Shown piece by piece: positions 4,710 through 34,603 of a stretch of DNA of 36,007 nucleotides. The position numbers and the translations under genes were made by a program. The first letter of the stretch is position 1. Each line of letters starts with the position of its first letter. Below the pieces are notes generated by a model. It was not told the DNA's origin. It ran no database searches and was given only the letters and a program-made list of their open reading frames with translations. Source of the stretch: a virus; UHGV virus genome UHGV-0135626. The stretch is one strand, 5' to 3'.

Positions 4710-5596
4710 CGGACATCATCATTAAACGCTACCGCCCTGAAGAGTTTCCGCGTCATCTGGACTTTCTGGAGCGAATGACTGTCACAAAGGGAACTGTAGA
4801 GGACTGGCACGCTCTTAAGTCGCTTCACTACAAAACAGACGGCAAACCTTTCGCGCCAACTTACTATCGCTGCGAACTTGATGACCGTCTGGTGGGCGTC
4901 GTGGTTATGGCTTACCCGAAACTACTGTTGGCACCTCGCCACCGCATGTTTCCTAAGTTGAAACCAACCACTAATACCACCGTGGCTAACCAGTACTGGG
5001 GTCGGTACGTGAATAACAACTTTGCGGTGATCAGTCGCTCAGTTGTGGATACTCAGTATCGTGGCGTAGGCGTCTCTTATCGAATGATTAACCTGGTTAG
5101 CAGGATGCATGACCGGCCAATCATTGAGATCCAGTCCTCGATGAGCAAATACAATCCCTTCGCCATGAAAGCAGGGTTTAAGTTCATCCGCCCTGAGCGA
5201 CCGAAGAGCTATGAAAGTGCACTGCGTGTATTCCAGCGCCATTTCCGTTCCGACCCGGGTGATAACGAGGCGATCGTCAAAGAGTTGTTCGCAATGAGCG
5301 AGTCTCGTCGTCGCCGTGCACTGCGTGATCTGGTGGCGGACTACCACAAGAACAGTTCCCTGGCAAAAGCTGGGCGGAATCGTGGCACGACGATTCAGGA
5401 CATTGCCGACAGTCTGGTGGACGAGGCCAGCATTGTGAAGCTGCTCAAGGACATTCACAACCTGAGCTTTACGTCTCCGTTGTATGGTGTGTACCGAAAC
5501 CCTGACTTTGGCCGTCGACTGCCTGACACGCTGCCACTGCTGGCATTCGACAAACAACCTTTGGATAAACCGTTAGAAATTGCTTTACCGGCATAA
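4706..5596 (+). CDS. GNAT-like acyltransferase-domain protein with a C-terminal extension of about 120 aa
   Basis: 296 aa. GNAT acyl-CoA motif QYRGVGVSYRMI and downstream NPFAMKAGFKF. SD GAGG 7 nt upstream; ATGA overlap with the ABC ATPase stop. Confidence 0.6.
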   Translation: MTDIIIKRYRPEEFPRHLDFLERMTVTKGTVEDWHALKSLHYKTDGKPFAPTYYRCELDDRLVGVVVMAYPKLLLAPRHRMFPKLKPTTNTTVANQYWGRYVNNNFAVISRSVVDTQYRGVGVSYRMINLVSRMHDRPIIEIQSSMSKYNPFAMKAGFKFIRPERPKSYESALRVFQRHFRSDPGDNEAIVKELFAMSESRRRRALRDLVADYHKNSSLAKAGRNRGTTIQDIADSLVDEASIVKLLKDIHNLSFTSPLYGVYRNPDFGRRLPDTLPLLAFDKQPLDKPLEIALPA

Positions 5597-5896: not shown

Positions 5897-5951
5897 CCTG
5901 CTTCTGTATATATAAATAATAAGAAACTTATTAAATATATACGGAAGCAGG
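5897..5951. repeat. Long imperfect inverted repeat with an AT-rich interior
   Basis: CCTGCTTC (5897-5904) pairs with GAAGCAGG (5944-5951); the interior also pairs imperfectly (tgtatatat...atatatacg). Confidence 0.5.
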
Positions 5952-5990
5952 CTTAATAAGACATGCCCAGACCTAATTAAACACCCCAGA

Positions 5991-6059
5991 AAACAAGTTG
6001 GTTAGCAGATGCAGTAAACAAGTTGTTTTAGAGCGCATGGACGCGCTCTGTGTGTTTTA
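5991..6059 (+). promoter_or_regulatory. Repeat cluster upstream of terS; candidate regulatory or packaging-recognition region
   Basis: AAACAAGTTG twice (5991-6000, 6016-6025), the second forming the near-palindrome AAACAAgTTGTTT (6016-6028). GTTTTAGAG twice (6023-6031, 6051-6059) flanking hairpin AGAGCGC-atggac-GCGCTCT. No clean sigma70 -35/-10 found. Confidence 0.35.
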
Positions 6060-6068
6060 GAGGGATCT

Positions 6069-6701
6069 ATGACGGTCGAAAAAGACGAGGTAAAAACTCG
6101 CCTGACACCAGCGGAGTGGGCCGAAGCTGAAGCCAAATGGACGTCAGGCGAATATACACTCTCAAAGCTGGAGGAAGAGTACGGCATTCGTCGTGAAACA
6201 CTCTCCAGACATTTCAAAAAGCGAGGATTAGAGAAAGGCGCGGACTCTGTTGGGAAGATGGTTCGTGAGTCTCTTAAATCTGACGCAGAGCTTCGCGCTA
6301 AAGCCCGTGCGGAAAAGATAGAAGAACGTCGTACACGTTATGACGGCTGGGCGTATGCGTTGGGGCAGATGGTGATGGTCGAAGTCACTACGGCCAAACG
6401 TGAGGGTAAGCCTTTAGGGGCGATTGAGGATTCTCTCAAGAGCTTACAGAGAGCAAGTAATACCCTTGCAAAATGCTTTGAAGTTTCGTCCAAAGCATTG
6501 GGCATGGATCATGCGGAAAATGACGAGGAAGAAATTCCGAACCTGGTATTTGGTGAGCTTACGCCTTCCCAGGTGGCGAAATTACGTCAGGAAGACGACG
6601 AGCCTGAAATCATCGATGACGAATTGCTTGAGACGTTGGAAGAAGAAGCTCTAAGCGAATTTGATGCGACAGATGATGGAAGTGAAGGGGAGGACGAATA
6701 A
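6069..6701 (+). CDS. terS: Terminase small subunit
   Basis: 210 aa immediately upstream of terL with TAATG overlap. N-terminal HTH-like segment (YTLSKLEEEYGIRRETLSRHFKKRG) and a very acidic C-terminus. SD AGAGGGA. Confidence 0.65.
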   Translation: MTVEKDEVKTRLTPAEWAEAEAKWTSGEYTLSKLEEEYGIRRETLSRHFKKRGLEKGADSVGKMVRESLKSDAELRAKARAEKIEERRTRYDGWAYALGQMVMVEVTTAKREGKPLGAIEDSLKSLQRASNTLAKCFEVSSKALGMDHAENDEEEIPNLVFGELTPSQVAKLRQEDDEPEIIDDELLETLEEEALSEFDATDDGSEGEDE

Positions 6702-11441: not shown

Positions 11442-12362
11442 ATGCCAGAACAAAAGATGAAGATTACGGAAGAGGCATTTTCGGATTTTACGGGGCATAT
11501 GTGCCGTGCCGGATTTACCAATTCTATCTCCGATGAACCTTTAACCGAGCGACAACAAAGTCAGCTATCTGCTTGTTTGCAGGCGGTTCCCTTCTCCCAA
11601 TCCGTAAACATAACCCCGGCTTCACCGTCAGTTTTGGTTGGGAAAACTGTTCAACTTAGTGCAGGTATTACTATGGGTAAGAGTGCCAGTTCATTCACCT
11701 GGAAGTCAGCCAATGATCAAATTGCAACCGTCAACGGCACTGGATTAGTAACTGGCGTAGCACCAGGCAAAGTGAAAATTACCGCAACTGATCAGGAAAC
11801 CCAGCTTTCCGCGTCAGTGGAAGTCACCGTAAATCCGGTAGCCGTTCAATCCGTAACGGTAACGCCAGACTCAACCTCTGTTGAGAAAGGGAAATCAGTC
11901 AGTCTGAAAGCGAATGTTCAGCCGTCAAATGCGACGAATAAGGCAGTTACCTGGTCTTCCAAAAATGAAGACAAGGCAACGGTAGACCAGAGCGGGAACG
12001 TTACTGGTGTAGAAGTTGGCACTGCGACGATTGAGATCGTTTCCCAAGATGGCAGCAAAAAGGCAACTGCAACGGTGGAAGTAACTGCGCCTGTTGTGGC
12101 TGTTACTGGTGTCGAAATCGACCCAAATAGCACAACCGTTGAGGCAAACAAAACTGTTCAGCTGACCGCAAATGTCGAGCCGGCAGGAGCAACAAATAAA
12201 ACCGTTACTTGGGAATCCAAAAATACCGAGTTTGCAACGGTGGACAGCGAAACCGGTGTTGTAACTGGTGTTGCGGCTGGCACTGCCACAATCGAGGTTA
12301 CTACCCAAGATGGTAGCCACAAAGCGACAGCGACTGTAGAAGTTACTGTCGCACAGGAATAA
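11442..12362 (+). CDS. Ig-like (Big_2-type) repeat protein, probable head decoration protein
   Basis: 306 aa with three tandem Ig-like units of about 80 aa, each with a KAVTWxSKN...ATVDxxGxVTGV...GTATIE pattern. SD AGGAG 6 nt upstream. Confidence 0.7.
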   Translation: MPEQKMKITEEAFSDFTGHMCRAGFTNSISDEPLTERQQSQLSACLQAVPFSQSVNITPASPSVLVGKTVQLSAGITMGKSASSFTWKSANDQIATVNGTGLVTGVAPGKVKITATDQETQLSASVEVTVNPVAVQSVTVTPDSTSVEKGKSVSLKANVQPSNATNKAVTWSSKNEDKATVDQSGNVTGVEVGTATIEIVSQDGSKKATATVEVTAPVVAVTGVEIDPNSTTVEANKTVQLTANVEPAGATNKTVTWESKNTEFATVDSETGVVTGVAAGTATIEVTTQDGSHKATATVEVTVAQE

Positions 12363-27859: not shown

Positions 27860-30205
27860 ATGTGGTACAGGGAAGGTACAATAAATCTCACTAAAGGAAA
27901 TAAAACTGTAGTGGGAACAGGCACAGCCTGGGGAGTGACGGCGAACGGCGTCCTTCCAGGTATGATATTGATTGGCCCCGATAATAAGTTATATGAAATA
28001 AAATCAATCGAGAGTGACACTTCGTTAACTCTTGTTGAAGCCTACGGTGGTAGCACCCAAACAAATGTCCCGTGCAGAATAATTACGACCTATGAAGGTG
28101 ATTTAACCCAATTTAGTGCTCGTTTTACTGCGCTTATGTCTCGCATGTCAGCCGATTCAAAAATGATGCGTAGTTGGTTGACTGCCGTGGATGAAATAAC
28201 AATTGAGCGTGAAGATGGCACGGAATTAACCGTAAAATCCCTTACGCAGATCGTTAATGAGCACAATGAGAACCTAGAATGGTATAAAGAAAATACTCCC
28301 ATAATTAACACCGCTGCACAAAAAGCTAAAGAGGCGGCAGCGAGCGCAACAGCGGCCAAAAAATCAGAAACTAACTCAAAAGCGAGTGAGACAGCTTCAA
28401 AGACTAGCGAAACTAATGCGAAAAATAGCGAGGTAGCTGCAAAATCGAGTCAGAGTGCTGCCGCAAACTCCGCTACCGCAGCAAAAAACAGCCAGGATGC
28501 AGCAGCCGAAAGCGAGAGTGCTGCAGCTGGTTCTGCGACTTCAGCAGCTGGATCAGCAACTGCTGCGGCTAACAGCCAGAAAGCTGCGAAGACGAGTGAA
28601 ACTAACGCAAAGTCCAGCCAGACGGCAGCAAAGACCAGCGAAACGAATGCCAAAGCCAGCGAAACTGCGGCGAAAAGCAGTCAGGATGCAGCAGCCGAAA
28701 GCGAGAGTGCTGCAGCCGGTTCTGCAACAGCGGCAGCTAATAGCCAAAAAGCTGCAAAAACCAGTGAAACTAACGCAAAGGCGAGCGAAACAAAAGCAGC
28801 AGCCAGCGAGACAGAAGCAACGTCAGCCGCAACAAGAGCAGAGAATGCAGCCAGGATTGCAGAAGATGCCGCTGATCCTGCTTCTGTCCCTCCGCTTCCT
28901 GATATCTGGCTACCCTTGAATGATTCTCTGGAAGCGATAACAGGGTATGCGCCGGGGTATAAAACAATAACCATCGGCAGCGATGAAATCACTGTGCCAG
29001 TTAATGGCATATGCCAATTTAGCCGGGCTTCATCTGCAACGTATATTGATAAGTCCGGGCATATTACCGTGGCAGGGAATAACGTTCCTCGTTTTGAAAA
29101 ATATGGTTTGCTGATAGAGAATCAGCGAACAAACATGTTCGTAAATAGTTTTAATCCTGATGCGTGGAATAAAAGCGGTGGTATATCTGTAACATCATCA
29201 ACAGATGAATTTGAGTTTAAATATGGACGTTTCACAGTAGGAAGCGACATAGCAGGAACGACAACAGGGAGAAATATATGCACAGTTGCTGGTAATAGAG
29301 GCATAGATGTGACTGGCGATGATCAGTACAGTAAAGGTCCGTATGTTACCGCGTCGTTCAGGGTAAGAAGTGATCTCAATGTTCGCGCACGTATCCGTTT
29401 TGAACGGTATAACTCGGAAGGATACACTTTCCTTTGTGACGCCTATTTGTCATTACAGACCCATGAACTACAAATTACGGGTGATAATGCCCAGCTATTA
29501 ACAGCAAACTTTGAAATCGATCCAGGTAGTGGATGGATATATTTTCAGGCAACCCTGAAATGTCTGCCAGAATGGGGAATGGTTGGTACGCAGTTGCAAA
29601 TTGCAGCCGACAGAGCTGTGGGGTCTTTTGCAACAGGTGACTGGATAGAAGTAACCACCCCGCAATTTGAGTATGGTGCTTGTGCAACTTCCTTTATCAT
29701 AACGACAACAGAGCCAGCTACTCGTGCATCAGATTTATGTAAATTTCCGCTGATGAAAAATATGTATACCATGCCTTTTACGTTCATGGTGGAAGTCCAT
29801 AAAAACTGGTTTATTTCTCATAATGCTGCACCGCGAGTAATTGATACAGAAAACCATCAGTCAGGTGCTCCATTTATCATGGGATTTGGCTCTTCTGGAA
29901 CTATCAGTCAGGACGGTTATCCCTATTGTGATATAGGCGGGGCTAACCGACGTGTATATGAGTCATGCGGAGTAAGAGATCTCGTTATGGGATTCAGGGT
30001 TAAGGCTGACGGCATGACATGCTCATTTGCAAATAAGCATATAAGCACAGAAACAAAAACAGTATGGAAATATATTCGTGAAGCTGCTGTGATTCGTATC
30101 GGGGGACAAACGACGACAGGATTACGACACCTTAATGGACATATAAAAAACCTCCGTTTCTGGAACAGAGCATTGTCAGATACGCAGCTTAAGGAATACG
30201 TATAA
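27860..30205 (+). CDS. Tail fibre protein with Ala/Ser/Glu/Thr-rich repeat shaft
   Basis: 781 aa: conserved N-terminus, low-complexity repeat region, then a Gly/Tyr/Trp-rich C-terminal domain with lower GC, as expected for a receptor-binding domain. Confidence 0.75.
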   Translation: MWYREGTINLTKGNKTVVGTGTAWGVTANGVLPGMILIGPDNKLYEIKSIESDTSLTLVEAYGGSTQTNVPCRIITTYEGDLTQFSARFTALMSRMSADSKMMRSWLTAVDEITIEREDGTELTVKSLTQIVNEHNENLEWYKENTPIINTAAQKAKEAAASATAAKKSETNSKASETASKTSETNAKNSEVAAKSSQSAAANSATAAKNSQDAAAESESAAAGSATSAAGSATAAANSQKAAKTSETNAKSSQTAAKTSETNAKASETAAKSSQDAAAESESAAAGSATAAANSQKAAKTSETNAKASETKAAASETEATSAATRAENAARIAEDAADPASVPPLPDIWLPLNDSLEAITGYAPGYKTITIGSDEITVPVNGICQFSRASSATYIDKSGHITVAGNNVPRFEKYGLLIENQRTNMFVNSFNPDAWNKSGGISVTSSTDEFEFKYGRFTVGSDIAGTTTGRNICTVAGNRGIDVTGDDQYSKGPYVTASFRVRSDLNVRARIRFERYNSEGYTFLCDAYLSLQTHELQITGDNAQLLTANFEIDPGSGWIYFQATLKCLPEWGMVGTQLQIAADRAVGSFATGDWIEVTTPQFEYGACATSFIITTTEPATRASDLCKFPLMKNMYTMPFTFMVEVHKNWFISHNAAPRVIDTENHQSGAPFIMGFGSSGTISQDGYPYCDIGGANRRVYESCGVRDLVMGFRVKADGMTCSFANKHISTETKTVWKYIREAAVIRIGGQTTTGLRHLNGHIKNLRFWNRALSDTQLKEYV
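28330..28870 (+). repeat. Imperfect tandem DNA repeats encoding the fibre shaft
   Basis: Near-identical segments recur about 190 bp apart, e.g. CAGGATGCAGCAGCCGAAAGCGAGAGTGCTGCAGC at 28492 and 28682, and AGTGAAACTAACGCAAAG at about 28588 and 28759. Confidence 0.7.
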
Positions 30206-34324: not shown

Positions 34325-34603
34325 TCTCCTCTGTTCAAACTGAGTTTTCGACTCAAAAATTACTTTAAAAGGCTATAGCCCATTACGTGTGCATTATCAA
34401 ATTGTGTACGGCATATCACCGTACTTGTAATATAGAGGTCATTGTTACTTTTTTCAACAGACAAATACAAGCTATGATTGCCAATTGTTAACCACAACCT
34501 ACCATTTAACCTTTACACCGCAGCCGTAGGCATTTAGGCTATATCACATATAAGAAAACAAGTTGTTTCAGACGATAATTATATACGCAAAGGGAACTCT
34601 CCA
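34325..34603. promoter_or_regulatory. Divergent control region between the toxin-antitoxin operon and parA; candidate operators or centromere
   Basis: 279-bp non-coding gap holding palindrome GGCTATAGCC (34371-34380), inverted repeat GTACGG-N7-CCGTAC (34406-34424) and near-palindrome AAACAAgTTGTTT (34556-34568) about 35 bp before parA. Confidence 0.45.

Follow-up and report, generated by a model that had tools for sequence, protein, structure and literature searches.

Introduction

In phages of the lambda type, the packaging region cosQ-cosN-cosB occupies about 200 bp of non-coding DNA directly before terS, the gene for the small terminase subunit, with partial two-fold symmetry and with boxes on the terS side. 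In the plasmid prophage P1, the asymmetric operator for C1 recurs at many places scattered over the genome, at or just past promoter-like sequences of separate units, most of which are silent in the lysogen. Intrinsic terminators and the terminators of late leaders (lambda PR'-tR', with Q) form stem-loops past a stop codon and in the short leader before the first late gene. T4-type phages carry 'promoter-early plus stem-loop' (PeSL) cassettes, repeated and conserved intergenic units found at module borders with variable genes adjoining. Here, the 196-bp gap between an 88-aa open reading frame (ORF) and the terS-like ORF of UHGV virus genome UHGV-0135626 was analysed and compared with these systems. 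The whole stretch of 36,007 nt is referred to as the window, and was identified as an SSU5-like phage-plasmid.

The gap shares with lambda-type cos its size and position, a partial two-fold symmetry and boxes towards terS, and the deposited linear genome of SSU5 starts inside the region. It differs from cos in that the symmetric element is AT-rich, 55−99 nt long and present with its boxes in three copies per genome, and in that the terS-side repeats are members of a family spread over the genome. That family resembles the C1 operators of P1 in its repeated occurrence, in position and in the silence of most carrier units; however, the site is a symmetric 13-nt palindrome of unrelated sequence, some carrier genes are expressed, and its binder is a candidate only. 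The stem-loops of the gap occupy the places of an intrinsic and of a late-leader terminator, but the large one lacks a T-run, the T-run of the small one is displaced by 5 nt and lost in one lineage, the arms of the large one are conserved in sequence, and no antiterminator was assigned. Like PeSL cassettes, conserved stem-loops and promoter-like units are repeated between genes at module borders, with variable genes adjoining; unlike them, they belong to another phage group and have another sequence, and the much longer stem-loop is present in three copies and is separate from the operators.

We propose that the late operon of an SSU5-type phage-plasmid, which comprises the packaging, head, tail and lysis genes, has its head in the gap, and that the gap consists of a terminator-like boundary hairpin, a weak promoter guarded by operators and a leader stem-loop. 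The probability of this reading as a whole was judged to be about even. The elements are of ordinary kinds, in an undescribed instance from a widespread and medically relevant family of phage-plasmids; no published account of the packaging site, late control or repressor network of the SSU5-like family was found.

Results

Identity of the window and conservation of the gap

The assignment to the SSU5 type was based on the gene order (ParB-ParB-ABC ATPase-PHROG 886-PHROG 900, gap, terS-like-terL-portal) together with DNA matches of 98−100% to SSU5-like plasmids and to phage Cyrano (pLF82); pHCM2 and pMT1 are further relatives. In the DNA search, the region was 99−100% identical to Escherichia coli plasmids and Cyrano, about 83% identical to Salmonella plasmids, Yersinia pMT1 and Enterobacter plasmids, and about 77% identical to Klebsiella plasmids. 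The gap of plasmid pXH988_2 is identical to that of the window, with a similarity of about 95−98% elsewhere. Since the two differ outside the gap, the complete sequences of pXH988_2 and SSU5 were used for all genome-wide counts.

An earlier note on the window had described a gap of this length before terS holding an imperfect hairpin of about 55 bp, the sequence AAACAAGTTG twice, and the sequence TGTTTTAGAG twice on either side of a GC hairpin. Each of these was recovered (Table 1): the hairpin exceeds chance and proved to be the core of a 99-nt palindrome, the first pair consists of two palindromic copies of 17 nt, and the copies of the second pair are exact. The features were conserved in Escherichia, Salmonella, Yersinia, Klebsiella, Buttiauxella and IMG/VR contigs.

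A dispersed operator-like palindrome at the putative terS promoter region

The two 17-nt repeats contain copies, named O1 and O2, of the 13-nt palindrome AAACAAnTTGTTT. Allowing one mismatch, three AAACAAnTTGTTT sites were counted in the window (0.29 expected), 20 in pXH988_2 (0.72 expected) and 20 in SSU5. All are intergenic. Fifteen sites lie about 10−40 nt before a start codon and 11−14 nt past a −10-like hexamer, which is often accompanied by a −35-like hexamer spaced 15 nt from it; the remaining sites follow a terminator hairpin and overlap the −35 position, and one promoter region is flanked by sites on both sides. TATAAT was matched at 5/6 positions or better at 40% of the operator sites, compared with 4% of random windows. 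At the level of sequence, the pattern of an operator, a short palindrome repeated at promoters, was found.

When the 20 sites were aligned, the −10-like hexamer before terS was found to lie as far from the first operator as the corresponding hexamers lie from the other sites. As the right arm of the large palindrome occupies the position of a −35 hexamer, the terS site has none. The −10-like hexamer is a putative part of a terS promoter, as judged from this alignment. In gene-level RNA sequencing (RNA-seq) data, most site-carrying genes were at background in the Cyrano lysogen, including terS and terL at 7−8 fragments per kilobase per million (fpkm).

Because AAACAAnTTGTTT stands guard at about 20 other transcription units as well, it is most likely a repressor site, and we infer that it is a dispersed operator for a dimeric repressor. 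Two proteins are candidates for this role: CYRAN_45, a putative repressor, and the 88-aa winged-helix protein encoded directly upstream of the gap. The main Klebsiella lineage has a single site in this gap, and the second copy is accordingly either a lineage-specific duplication of 25 nt or a copy that was lost there. A layout of the P1 Lpa type, in which the palindrome would lie upstream of the −10 hexamer, was also considered and rejected, as several sites leave about 19 nt to the start codon with no −10 hexamer downstream.

A third perfect AAACAAGTTGTTT site of the window was located at 34556−34568, 36 nt upstream of a parA-like gene (34604−35272). At positions 62918, 65598 and 73987 of the pXH988_2 record (20900−20950, 23576−23620 and 31927−32010 of the piece), repeated cassettes were observed between small early genes. 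Each is composed of a GC hairpin (AAGGCCAC...GTGGCCTT or similar), followed by the operator palindrome and by a conserved TTTTCTACCTTTT...GAAAATAA. They look like units of terminator, operator and promoter.

A second family of dispersed palindromes, (G)ATA[AG]GTAAGT-n3-4-TAyCTAtc, was found at 16 sites in pXH988_2 and 17 in SSU5. Its sites in the window are at 2659−2680, 7953−7972, 9462−9483 (− strand), 11376−11395, 21444−21463 and 31953−31972. They lie mostly in short gaps before start codons, such as those of the ParB cassette, the terL/portal junction and the gene downstream of the second copy of the large palindrome. This family could serve as a second operator or in RNA processing, and its core, AAGTAAGTGA/ACT...GGTGAGC, may resemble the sequence of the ERIC2 primer.

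A conserved stem-loop in the terS leader

A GC stem-loop, also detected by the terminator scan, follows O2 and is itself followed by the ribosome-binding site of terS. Among 14 distinct leaders, the stem was retained by means of differing sequences (GAGCGC/GCGCTC, GAGCAYA/TGTGCTC and CGGCGC/GCGCCG), with three pairs changing on both sides; 87.8% of the cells were paired, compared with 18−55% when the partners were slid. In a divergent Klebsiella lineage the stem is present in a shifted register (GGCGTC/GATGCC). The AGGA core of the loop is kept. Downstream, TAGAGGGAnCTATG was constant in 46 distinct sequences save for one variable position between GGGA and CTATG. Both the operator and the leader stem are well supported as conserved functional elements. 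Repression and attenuation are their proposed molecular roles.

The exact repeats on either side of the stem-loop were explained by its neighbours. The first 'GTTTTAGAG' is made up of the end of O2 and the foot of the stem, and the second of the T-run and the Shine-Dalgarno region; the first copy takes the form GTTTAGGAG or GTTTAAGAG in relatives. The direct repeat can therefore be put down to these other features. Two proposals of the earlier note did not hold in this respect: the GTTTTAGAG pair is not a distinct repeat but a conserved stem flank plus the Shine-Dalgarno region, and the AAACAAGTTG pair is not a packaging repeat proper to the terS side, given 20 sites per genome and the one copy in the main Klebsiella lineage.

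The large palindrome is specific to SSU5-like plasmids and a proposed boundary element

The core hairpin consists of a GC clamp, CCTGCTTCTG / CGGAAGCAGG, enclosing an AT-rich, roughly palindromic centre. The 17-nt outer arms of the core pair with one mismatch, for which 0.03 matches were expected by chance. Folded as DNA, the 99-nt palindrome reached −27.4 kcal/mol (z = −10.4), and none of 200 shuffled sequences was as stable.

Three copies of the palindrome were found in pXH988_2 and in SSU5, all of them intergenic. The copy before terS was designated copy A; in pXH988_2, copy B precedes the helicase-primase module and copy C follows an adenine methylase gene. In SSU5, each copy begins 22−27 nt past the stop codon of a + strand gene and heads a gap of 196−203 nt. 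Copies B and C, as well as the copies in relatives, have the same layout of boxes and hairpin. The conserved arms read CCTGYnTCYGTATAT / ATATACRGAAGCAGG, and outer inverted boxes GGTCTGGGAG ... CTCCCAGACC cluster at the elements; of the 12 CCCAGAC heptamers of pXH988_2, five lie no more than about 100 nt from hairpins A and C. The AT-rich centre varies among the copies.

A pattern scan found the hairpin in 96 IMG/VR loci, which represent the three contexts already named and a few others. In E. coli, the element was present in 260 of 5426 complete genomes, at 1031 places on plasmids and two on chromosomes, and is therefore specific to SSU5-like plasmids rather than a general enterobacterial repeat. 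This count eliminated a chromosomal repeat similar to the enterobacterial repetitive intergenic consensus (ERIC) or to miniature inverted-repeat transposable elements (MITE), as only 2 of 1033 places were chromosomal. The same observations bear on the idea that the palindromes are selfish or left-over MITE- or ERIC-like repeats with no role, which would leave the operators and the ribosome site as the only parts that matter. Being dispersed, palindromic and intergenic, with inverted boxes at its ends, the repeat does have the appearance of such an element, and one relative carries an extra copy beside an inserted toxin-antitoxin pair. However, orthologous copies occupy the same three positions in lineages of Escherichia, Salmonella and Klebsiella that share only about 76% identity in coding DNA, the arms are nearly invariant and chromosomes are essentially devoid of the element, and a neutral repeat was considered very improbable.

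For E. albertii p3RM15112 (62 kb), a Shigella sonnei plasmid (66.5 kb) and an E. coli IncF plasmid, only the hairpin part of the query was matched. These three plasmids carry the 55-nt hairpin and its flanking boxes without a match to the flanking 88-aa and terS-like genes. One of their copies is beside an inserted RelE/ParE toxin-antitoxin pair and another is between insertion sequence elements.

Among 20 distinct variants of type A (the terS side), the outer 14 pairs were nearly invariant. Pair 9 alternates between C-G, T-G and T-A, and at pair 6 the distal arm carries changes without compensation. Variation was lower in the terS-proximal arm than in the distal arm (summed non-consensus of 1.3 and 3.05, respectively), and two A.A mismatches within the arms were themselves conserved. 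The palindrome thus shows strong conservation and little covariation, and conservation of this strength implies that a protein also recognises it. In the most distant relatives, the divergent Klebsiella lineage and Moellerella, the position of the palindrome is occupied by an AT-rich stretch with short GC inverted repeats, and a long hairpin was not significant there (z = −1.1 to −1.3).

In a rival reading, the three palindromes would be DNA-level sites for a phage protein, namely lytic origins used by the replisome of the element itself, or loading or nicking sites for the two ParB-like proteins or the winged-helix protein encoded just before copy A. The 15-nt inverted arms and the two A.A mismatches are indeed conserved beyond the needs of pairing, the CCCAGAC boxes that cluster at the elements are two-fold symmetric, and the centre would melt easily. 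Copy B directly precedes the helicase-primase module, two ParB N-domain genes and the winged-helix gene adjoin copy A, and the layout recalls origins in which inverted initiator sites surround an AT-rich palindrome. Against this, no protein was assigned as the binder, the distal arm tolerates uncompensated changes and the long hairpin fades in the most distant relatives. The fixed short distance past the stops of rightward genes and the two T-runs described below fit elements of RNA 3' ends better. On balance, a purely DNA-level role was considered unlikely.

Copies B and C are directly trailed by TCTTTT or CTGTTTT, with four to six T in the next 9 nt. Across copy B, the Cyrano RNA-seq signal fell about 10-fold, from 50−90 fpkm (parA to CYRAN_30) to 6 fpkm (CYRAN_31), and across copy A it fell about three- to fivefold from CYRAN_123 to terS under stress. 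Hairpins shortly past stop codons were thus found together with a transcript drop, as expected of terminators by position; the data are at gene level and are supportive rather than proof. A terminator-like boundary role is favoured on the strength of the fixed position past stops, the T-runs that follow copies B and C, and the drop in expression at copy B. The role of the palindrome is nevertheless the least certain of the three modules.

A further candidate was that the right arm of the hairpin serves as a class-II activator site near −42 of the terS promoter. This fits the geometry of copy A only, and as copies B and C have no comparable −10 hexamer at that distance, it was dropped as a general explanation.

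The palindrome as a possible terminase cut site

The linear record of SSU5 (JQ965645) ends in ...CTTATTA and starts with AATATATACGGAAGCAGG, which corresponds to position 5934 of the window, 9 nt to the right of the dyad. The record is a circular permutation of the plasmid forms, with no base lost or duplicated at the junction. A random record start would fall inside the 55-nt element with a probability of about 5e-4. The start therefore marks a real DNA end, or else the assembly broke at the palindrome. The Cyrano record starts one base later (5935), but is probably not independent, being a re-annotated sequence of plasmid pLF82 that was compared with SSU5.

These data bear most directly on the proposal that the palindrome is, or contains, a terminase cut site of the cos or fixed-end type, with the small subunit binding the nearby boxes and packaging proceeding rightward from terS. 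In addition to the opening of the SSU5 record within the right arm, that record reads through copies B and C intact, the gap directly before terS is the classic place for cos, and the terS-proximal arm is the better conserved. Moellerella and the divergent Klebsiella lineage also retain their AT-rich stretch bracketed by GC inverted repeats.

Several findings point the other way. A cleavage site should be unique, whereas the palindrome occurs three times, with similar boxes, in both pXH988_2 and SSU5. Although the element adjoins the terminase genes, the repeats near it are shared either with the other copies (the CCCAGAC boxes) or with the 20-member genome-wide family. The palindrome is also present in plasmids of 62−66 kb, where the neighbours shown are not packaging genes. 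The cohesive-end region would be almost pure A+T, unlike known cos sites. The SSU5 junction neither lacks nor duplicates bases relative to the plasmid forms, and the remaining phage records of the group have their starts at other places. In SSU5, neither of the other copies is as perfect a palindrome as copy A, which makes an assembly break there plausible.

The contigs of 76 IMG/VR loci that carry terS showed no surplus of starts about 134 nt before that gene; contig ends near the hairpins are in any case not interpretable, because a three-copy repeat breaks assemblies. The best solved relatives of TerL are P74-26 TerL and T4 gp17, and its phage relatives at about 25% identity include T5-like, Jersey-like and actinophage terminases. 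As these use differing packaging strategies, TerL does not decide the matter. A literature search on SSU5 genome ends or packaging returned nothing relevant, and the Cyrano paper contains no end mapping. A cut site at copy A was therefore regarded as possible but doubtful.

A more radical proposal is that the palindromes are a structured DNA site of a new kind, extruded as cruciforms and cut or nicked by terminase or by the ParB-like nucleases encoded beside copy A. Copy A would then make the virion ends via a hairpin, and the other copies would act as nick or replication-initiation sites. We consider this improbable; if true, cruciform end formation would be an unrecognised way to make the ends of a phage-plasmid genome of about 100 kb. 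For copy A, roles as a boundary, as a cut site and as a protein-bound site are not mutually exclusive.

Proposed organisation of the late-operon head

Under the favoured reading, the gap as head of the late operon, the three modules would act in order. The palindrome would form a very stable hairpin in rightward transcripts, thereby ending or insulating the upstream transcription unit, whose last gene yields a transcript that would enter it. A weak promoter, with a −10-like hexamer and no −35 hexamer, would be overlapped just past its presumed start point by two AAACAAnTTGTTT copies. A dimeric repressor bound to AAACAAnTTGTTT would keep the lytic genes off in the plasmid state, with a double dose at the late operon. 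The GC stem-loop may act as a leaky attenuator, as suggested by the T-run that follows it in the lineage of the window, or else be a structural feature of the mRNA leader.

A number of observations weigh against this organisation. The strict sigma-70 scan found no promoter at 5000−7000, the gap included, and no enrichment at the other operator sites; the promoter calls consequently rest on the aligned −10-like hexamers with 15-nt spacers. The parA and S24-peptidase genes carry the operator yet are expressed in the Cyrano lysogen. Copy A is followed by just two to four T in the next 9 nt, and so poor a T-run does not make it a canonical intrinsic terminator. That the arms are kept in sequence across paralogues and genera, with uncompensated changes confined to one arm, is more than a plain terminator requires. 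The small stem is marginal as a terminator, because its TTTT run begins 5 nt past the stem, and in the divergent Klebsiella lineage no T-run follows it. Lastly, the start of the SSU5 record inside the palindrome has to be taken as an assembly break.

The earlier note had offered the region as a candidate pac/cos or late-promoter region. What stood was that it is conserved, heads the packaging and late operon and carries elements of a regulatory type, whereas a consensus sigma-70 promoter was not found in the gap. As to packaging, the SSU5 and Cyrano records do start in the right arm of the hairpin, but the hairpin is not specific to terS, each related genome examined having two more copies.

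Table 1. Features of the gap and of the adjoining genes, in window coordinates
Feature	Position	Strand	Description
88-aa gene	5606−5872	+	PHROG 900 match, E = 1.9e-45
Gap	5873−6068		196 bp, between the 88-aa ORF and the terS-like ORF
Extended imperfect palindrome ('boundary element', copy A)	5875−5973		99 nt, 2 nt past the stop of the 88-aa gene
Outer inverted boxes of copy A	5875−5884, 5966−5973		GGTCTGGGAG and CCCAGACC, then partly complementary spacers around the core
Core hairpin	5897−5951		55 nt, dyad at about 5925, starts 24 nt past the stop of the 88-aa gene
−10-like hexamer	5973−5979	+	CTAATT / TAATTA, 4/6 match, weakest among the operator sites
17-nt AAACAAGTTG copies	5987−6003, 6012−6028		88% identical, 25 nt apart, each a palindrome AAACAA-n-TTGTTT
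O1	5988−6003		AGA-AAACAAGTTGGTT, one mismatch to AAACAAnTTGTTT
O2	6016−6028		AAACAAGTTGTTT, perfect copy
TGTTTTAGAG pair	6024−6033, 6053−6062		Exact copies either side of the GC stem-loop
GC stem-loop	6029−6050	+	Stem 6029−6036 / 6043−6050, loop ATGGAC
Stem-loop and tail	6029−6058	+	Stem, then TGTGTTTT; terminator-like, marginal
Shine-Dalgarno sequence	6059−6064	+	AGAGGG; start codon of the terS-like gene at 6069
terS-like gene	6069−6701	+	210 aa, PHROG 867 'DNA binding domain'
Large terminase gene (terL)	6701−7957		Next gene is the portal gene

The 88-aa gene and the genomic neighbourhood

The AlphaFold model of the 88-aa protein has three helices and a long basic wing (mean predicted local distance difference test, pLDDT, of 72.5). 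The best Foldseek hits were the DNA-binding domains of LexA, BlaI/MecI and DtxR, with probabilities of up to 0.99 and E = 0.14 or worse; neither Pfam nor PDB sequence searches gave significant matches. The protein is therefore predicted, from its model, to be a winged-helix DNA-binding protein. It may bind to sites within the gap, and is a candidate late regulator or packaging accessory protein. In Cyrano under stress, RNA of this gene reached about 45−90 fpkm compared with about 7 fpkm for the preceding gene, making it the sole riser in its neighbourhood; downstream, terS was at about 10−33 fpkm and terL at 6−12 fpkm. This rise between lower flanks suggests a separate promoter for the 88-aa gene and a partial barrier between this gene and terS.

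The stop codon of the terS-like gene overlaps the start of terL. The name terS is based on this position and on the Cyrano annotation 'Terminase small subunit', as the protein had no Pfam match and no PDB sequence match. Rfam covariance models searched across the whole window gave zero matches at gathering thresholds.

Upstream of the packaging genes, a conserved cassette of four genes (2681−5596) encodes two ParB N-domain proteins, an ABC-type ATPase and a PHROG 886 protein. In Cyrano it is silent in the lysogen, and the PHROG 886 protein is annotated there as 'ABC-type ATPase fused to acetyltransferase domain'. The cassette could be a DNA-modification or packaging-accessory module.

Repeats were also observed within coding regions of the window. 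Imperfect direct repeats with units of 126−161 nt are present at 28389−28833, within the ORF 27860−30205 of the tail-fibre region, and an 88-nt unit occurs twice at 12000−12348 in a gene with Ig-like domains. The recA-like gene is 2340 nt long in pXH988_2 (26167−28506 of the piece) and in Cyrano, compared with 1077 nt in SSU5 (54580−55656), and in pXH988_2 it is annotated as a LAGLIDADG homing endonuclease. The difference in size suggests that an intein or a homing endonuclease was inserted in the E. coli lineage.

Significance

SSU5-like phage-plasmids are common, and include pHCM2 of Salmonella Typhi, pMT1 of Yersinia pestis and many plasmids of E. coli and Klebsiella, some of them with resistance genes. 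The 13-nt operator with its approximately 20 sites likely defines the lysogeny regulon of these elements, and the map also provides three conserved boundary palindromes and a precise candidate for the virion DNA end. The value of this lies in the annotation and understanding of a family that is widespread but has been neglected, and not in the discovery of a new principle. Knowledge of the packaging signal and of the late switch would help to predict induction of, and transduction by, SSU5-like elements, and to engineer them.

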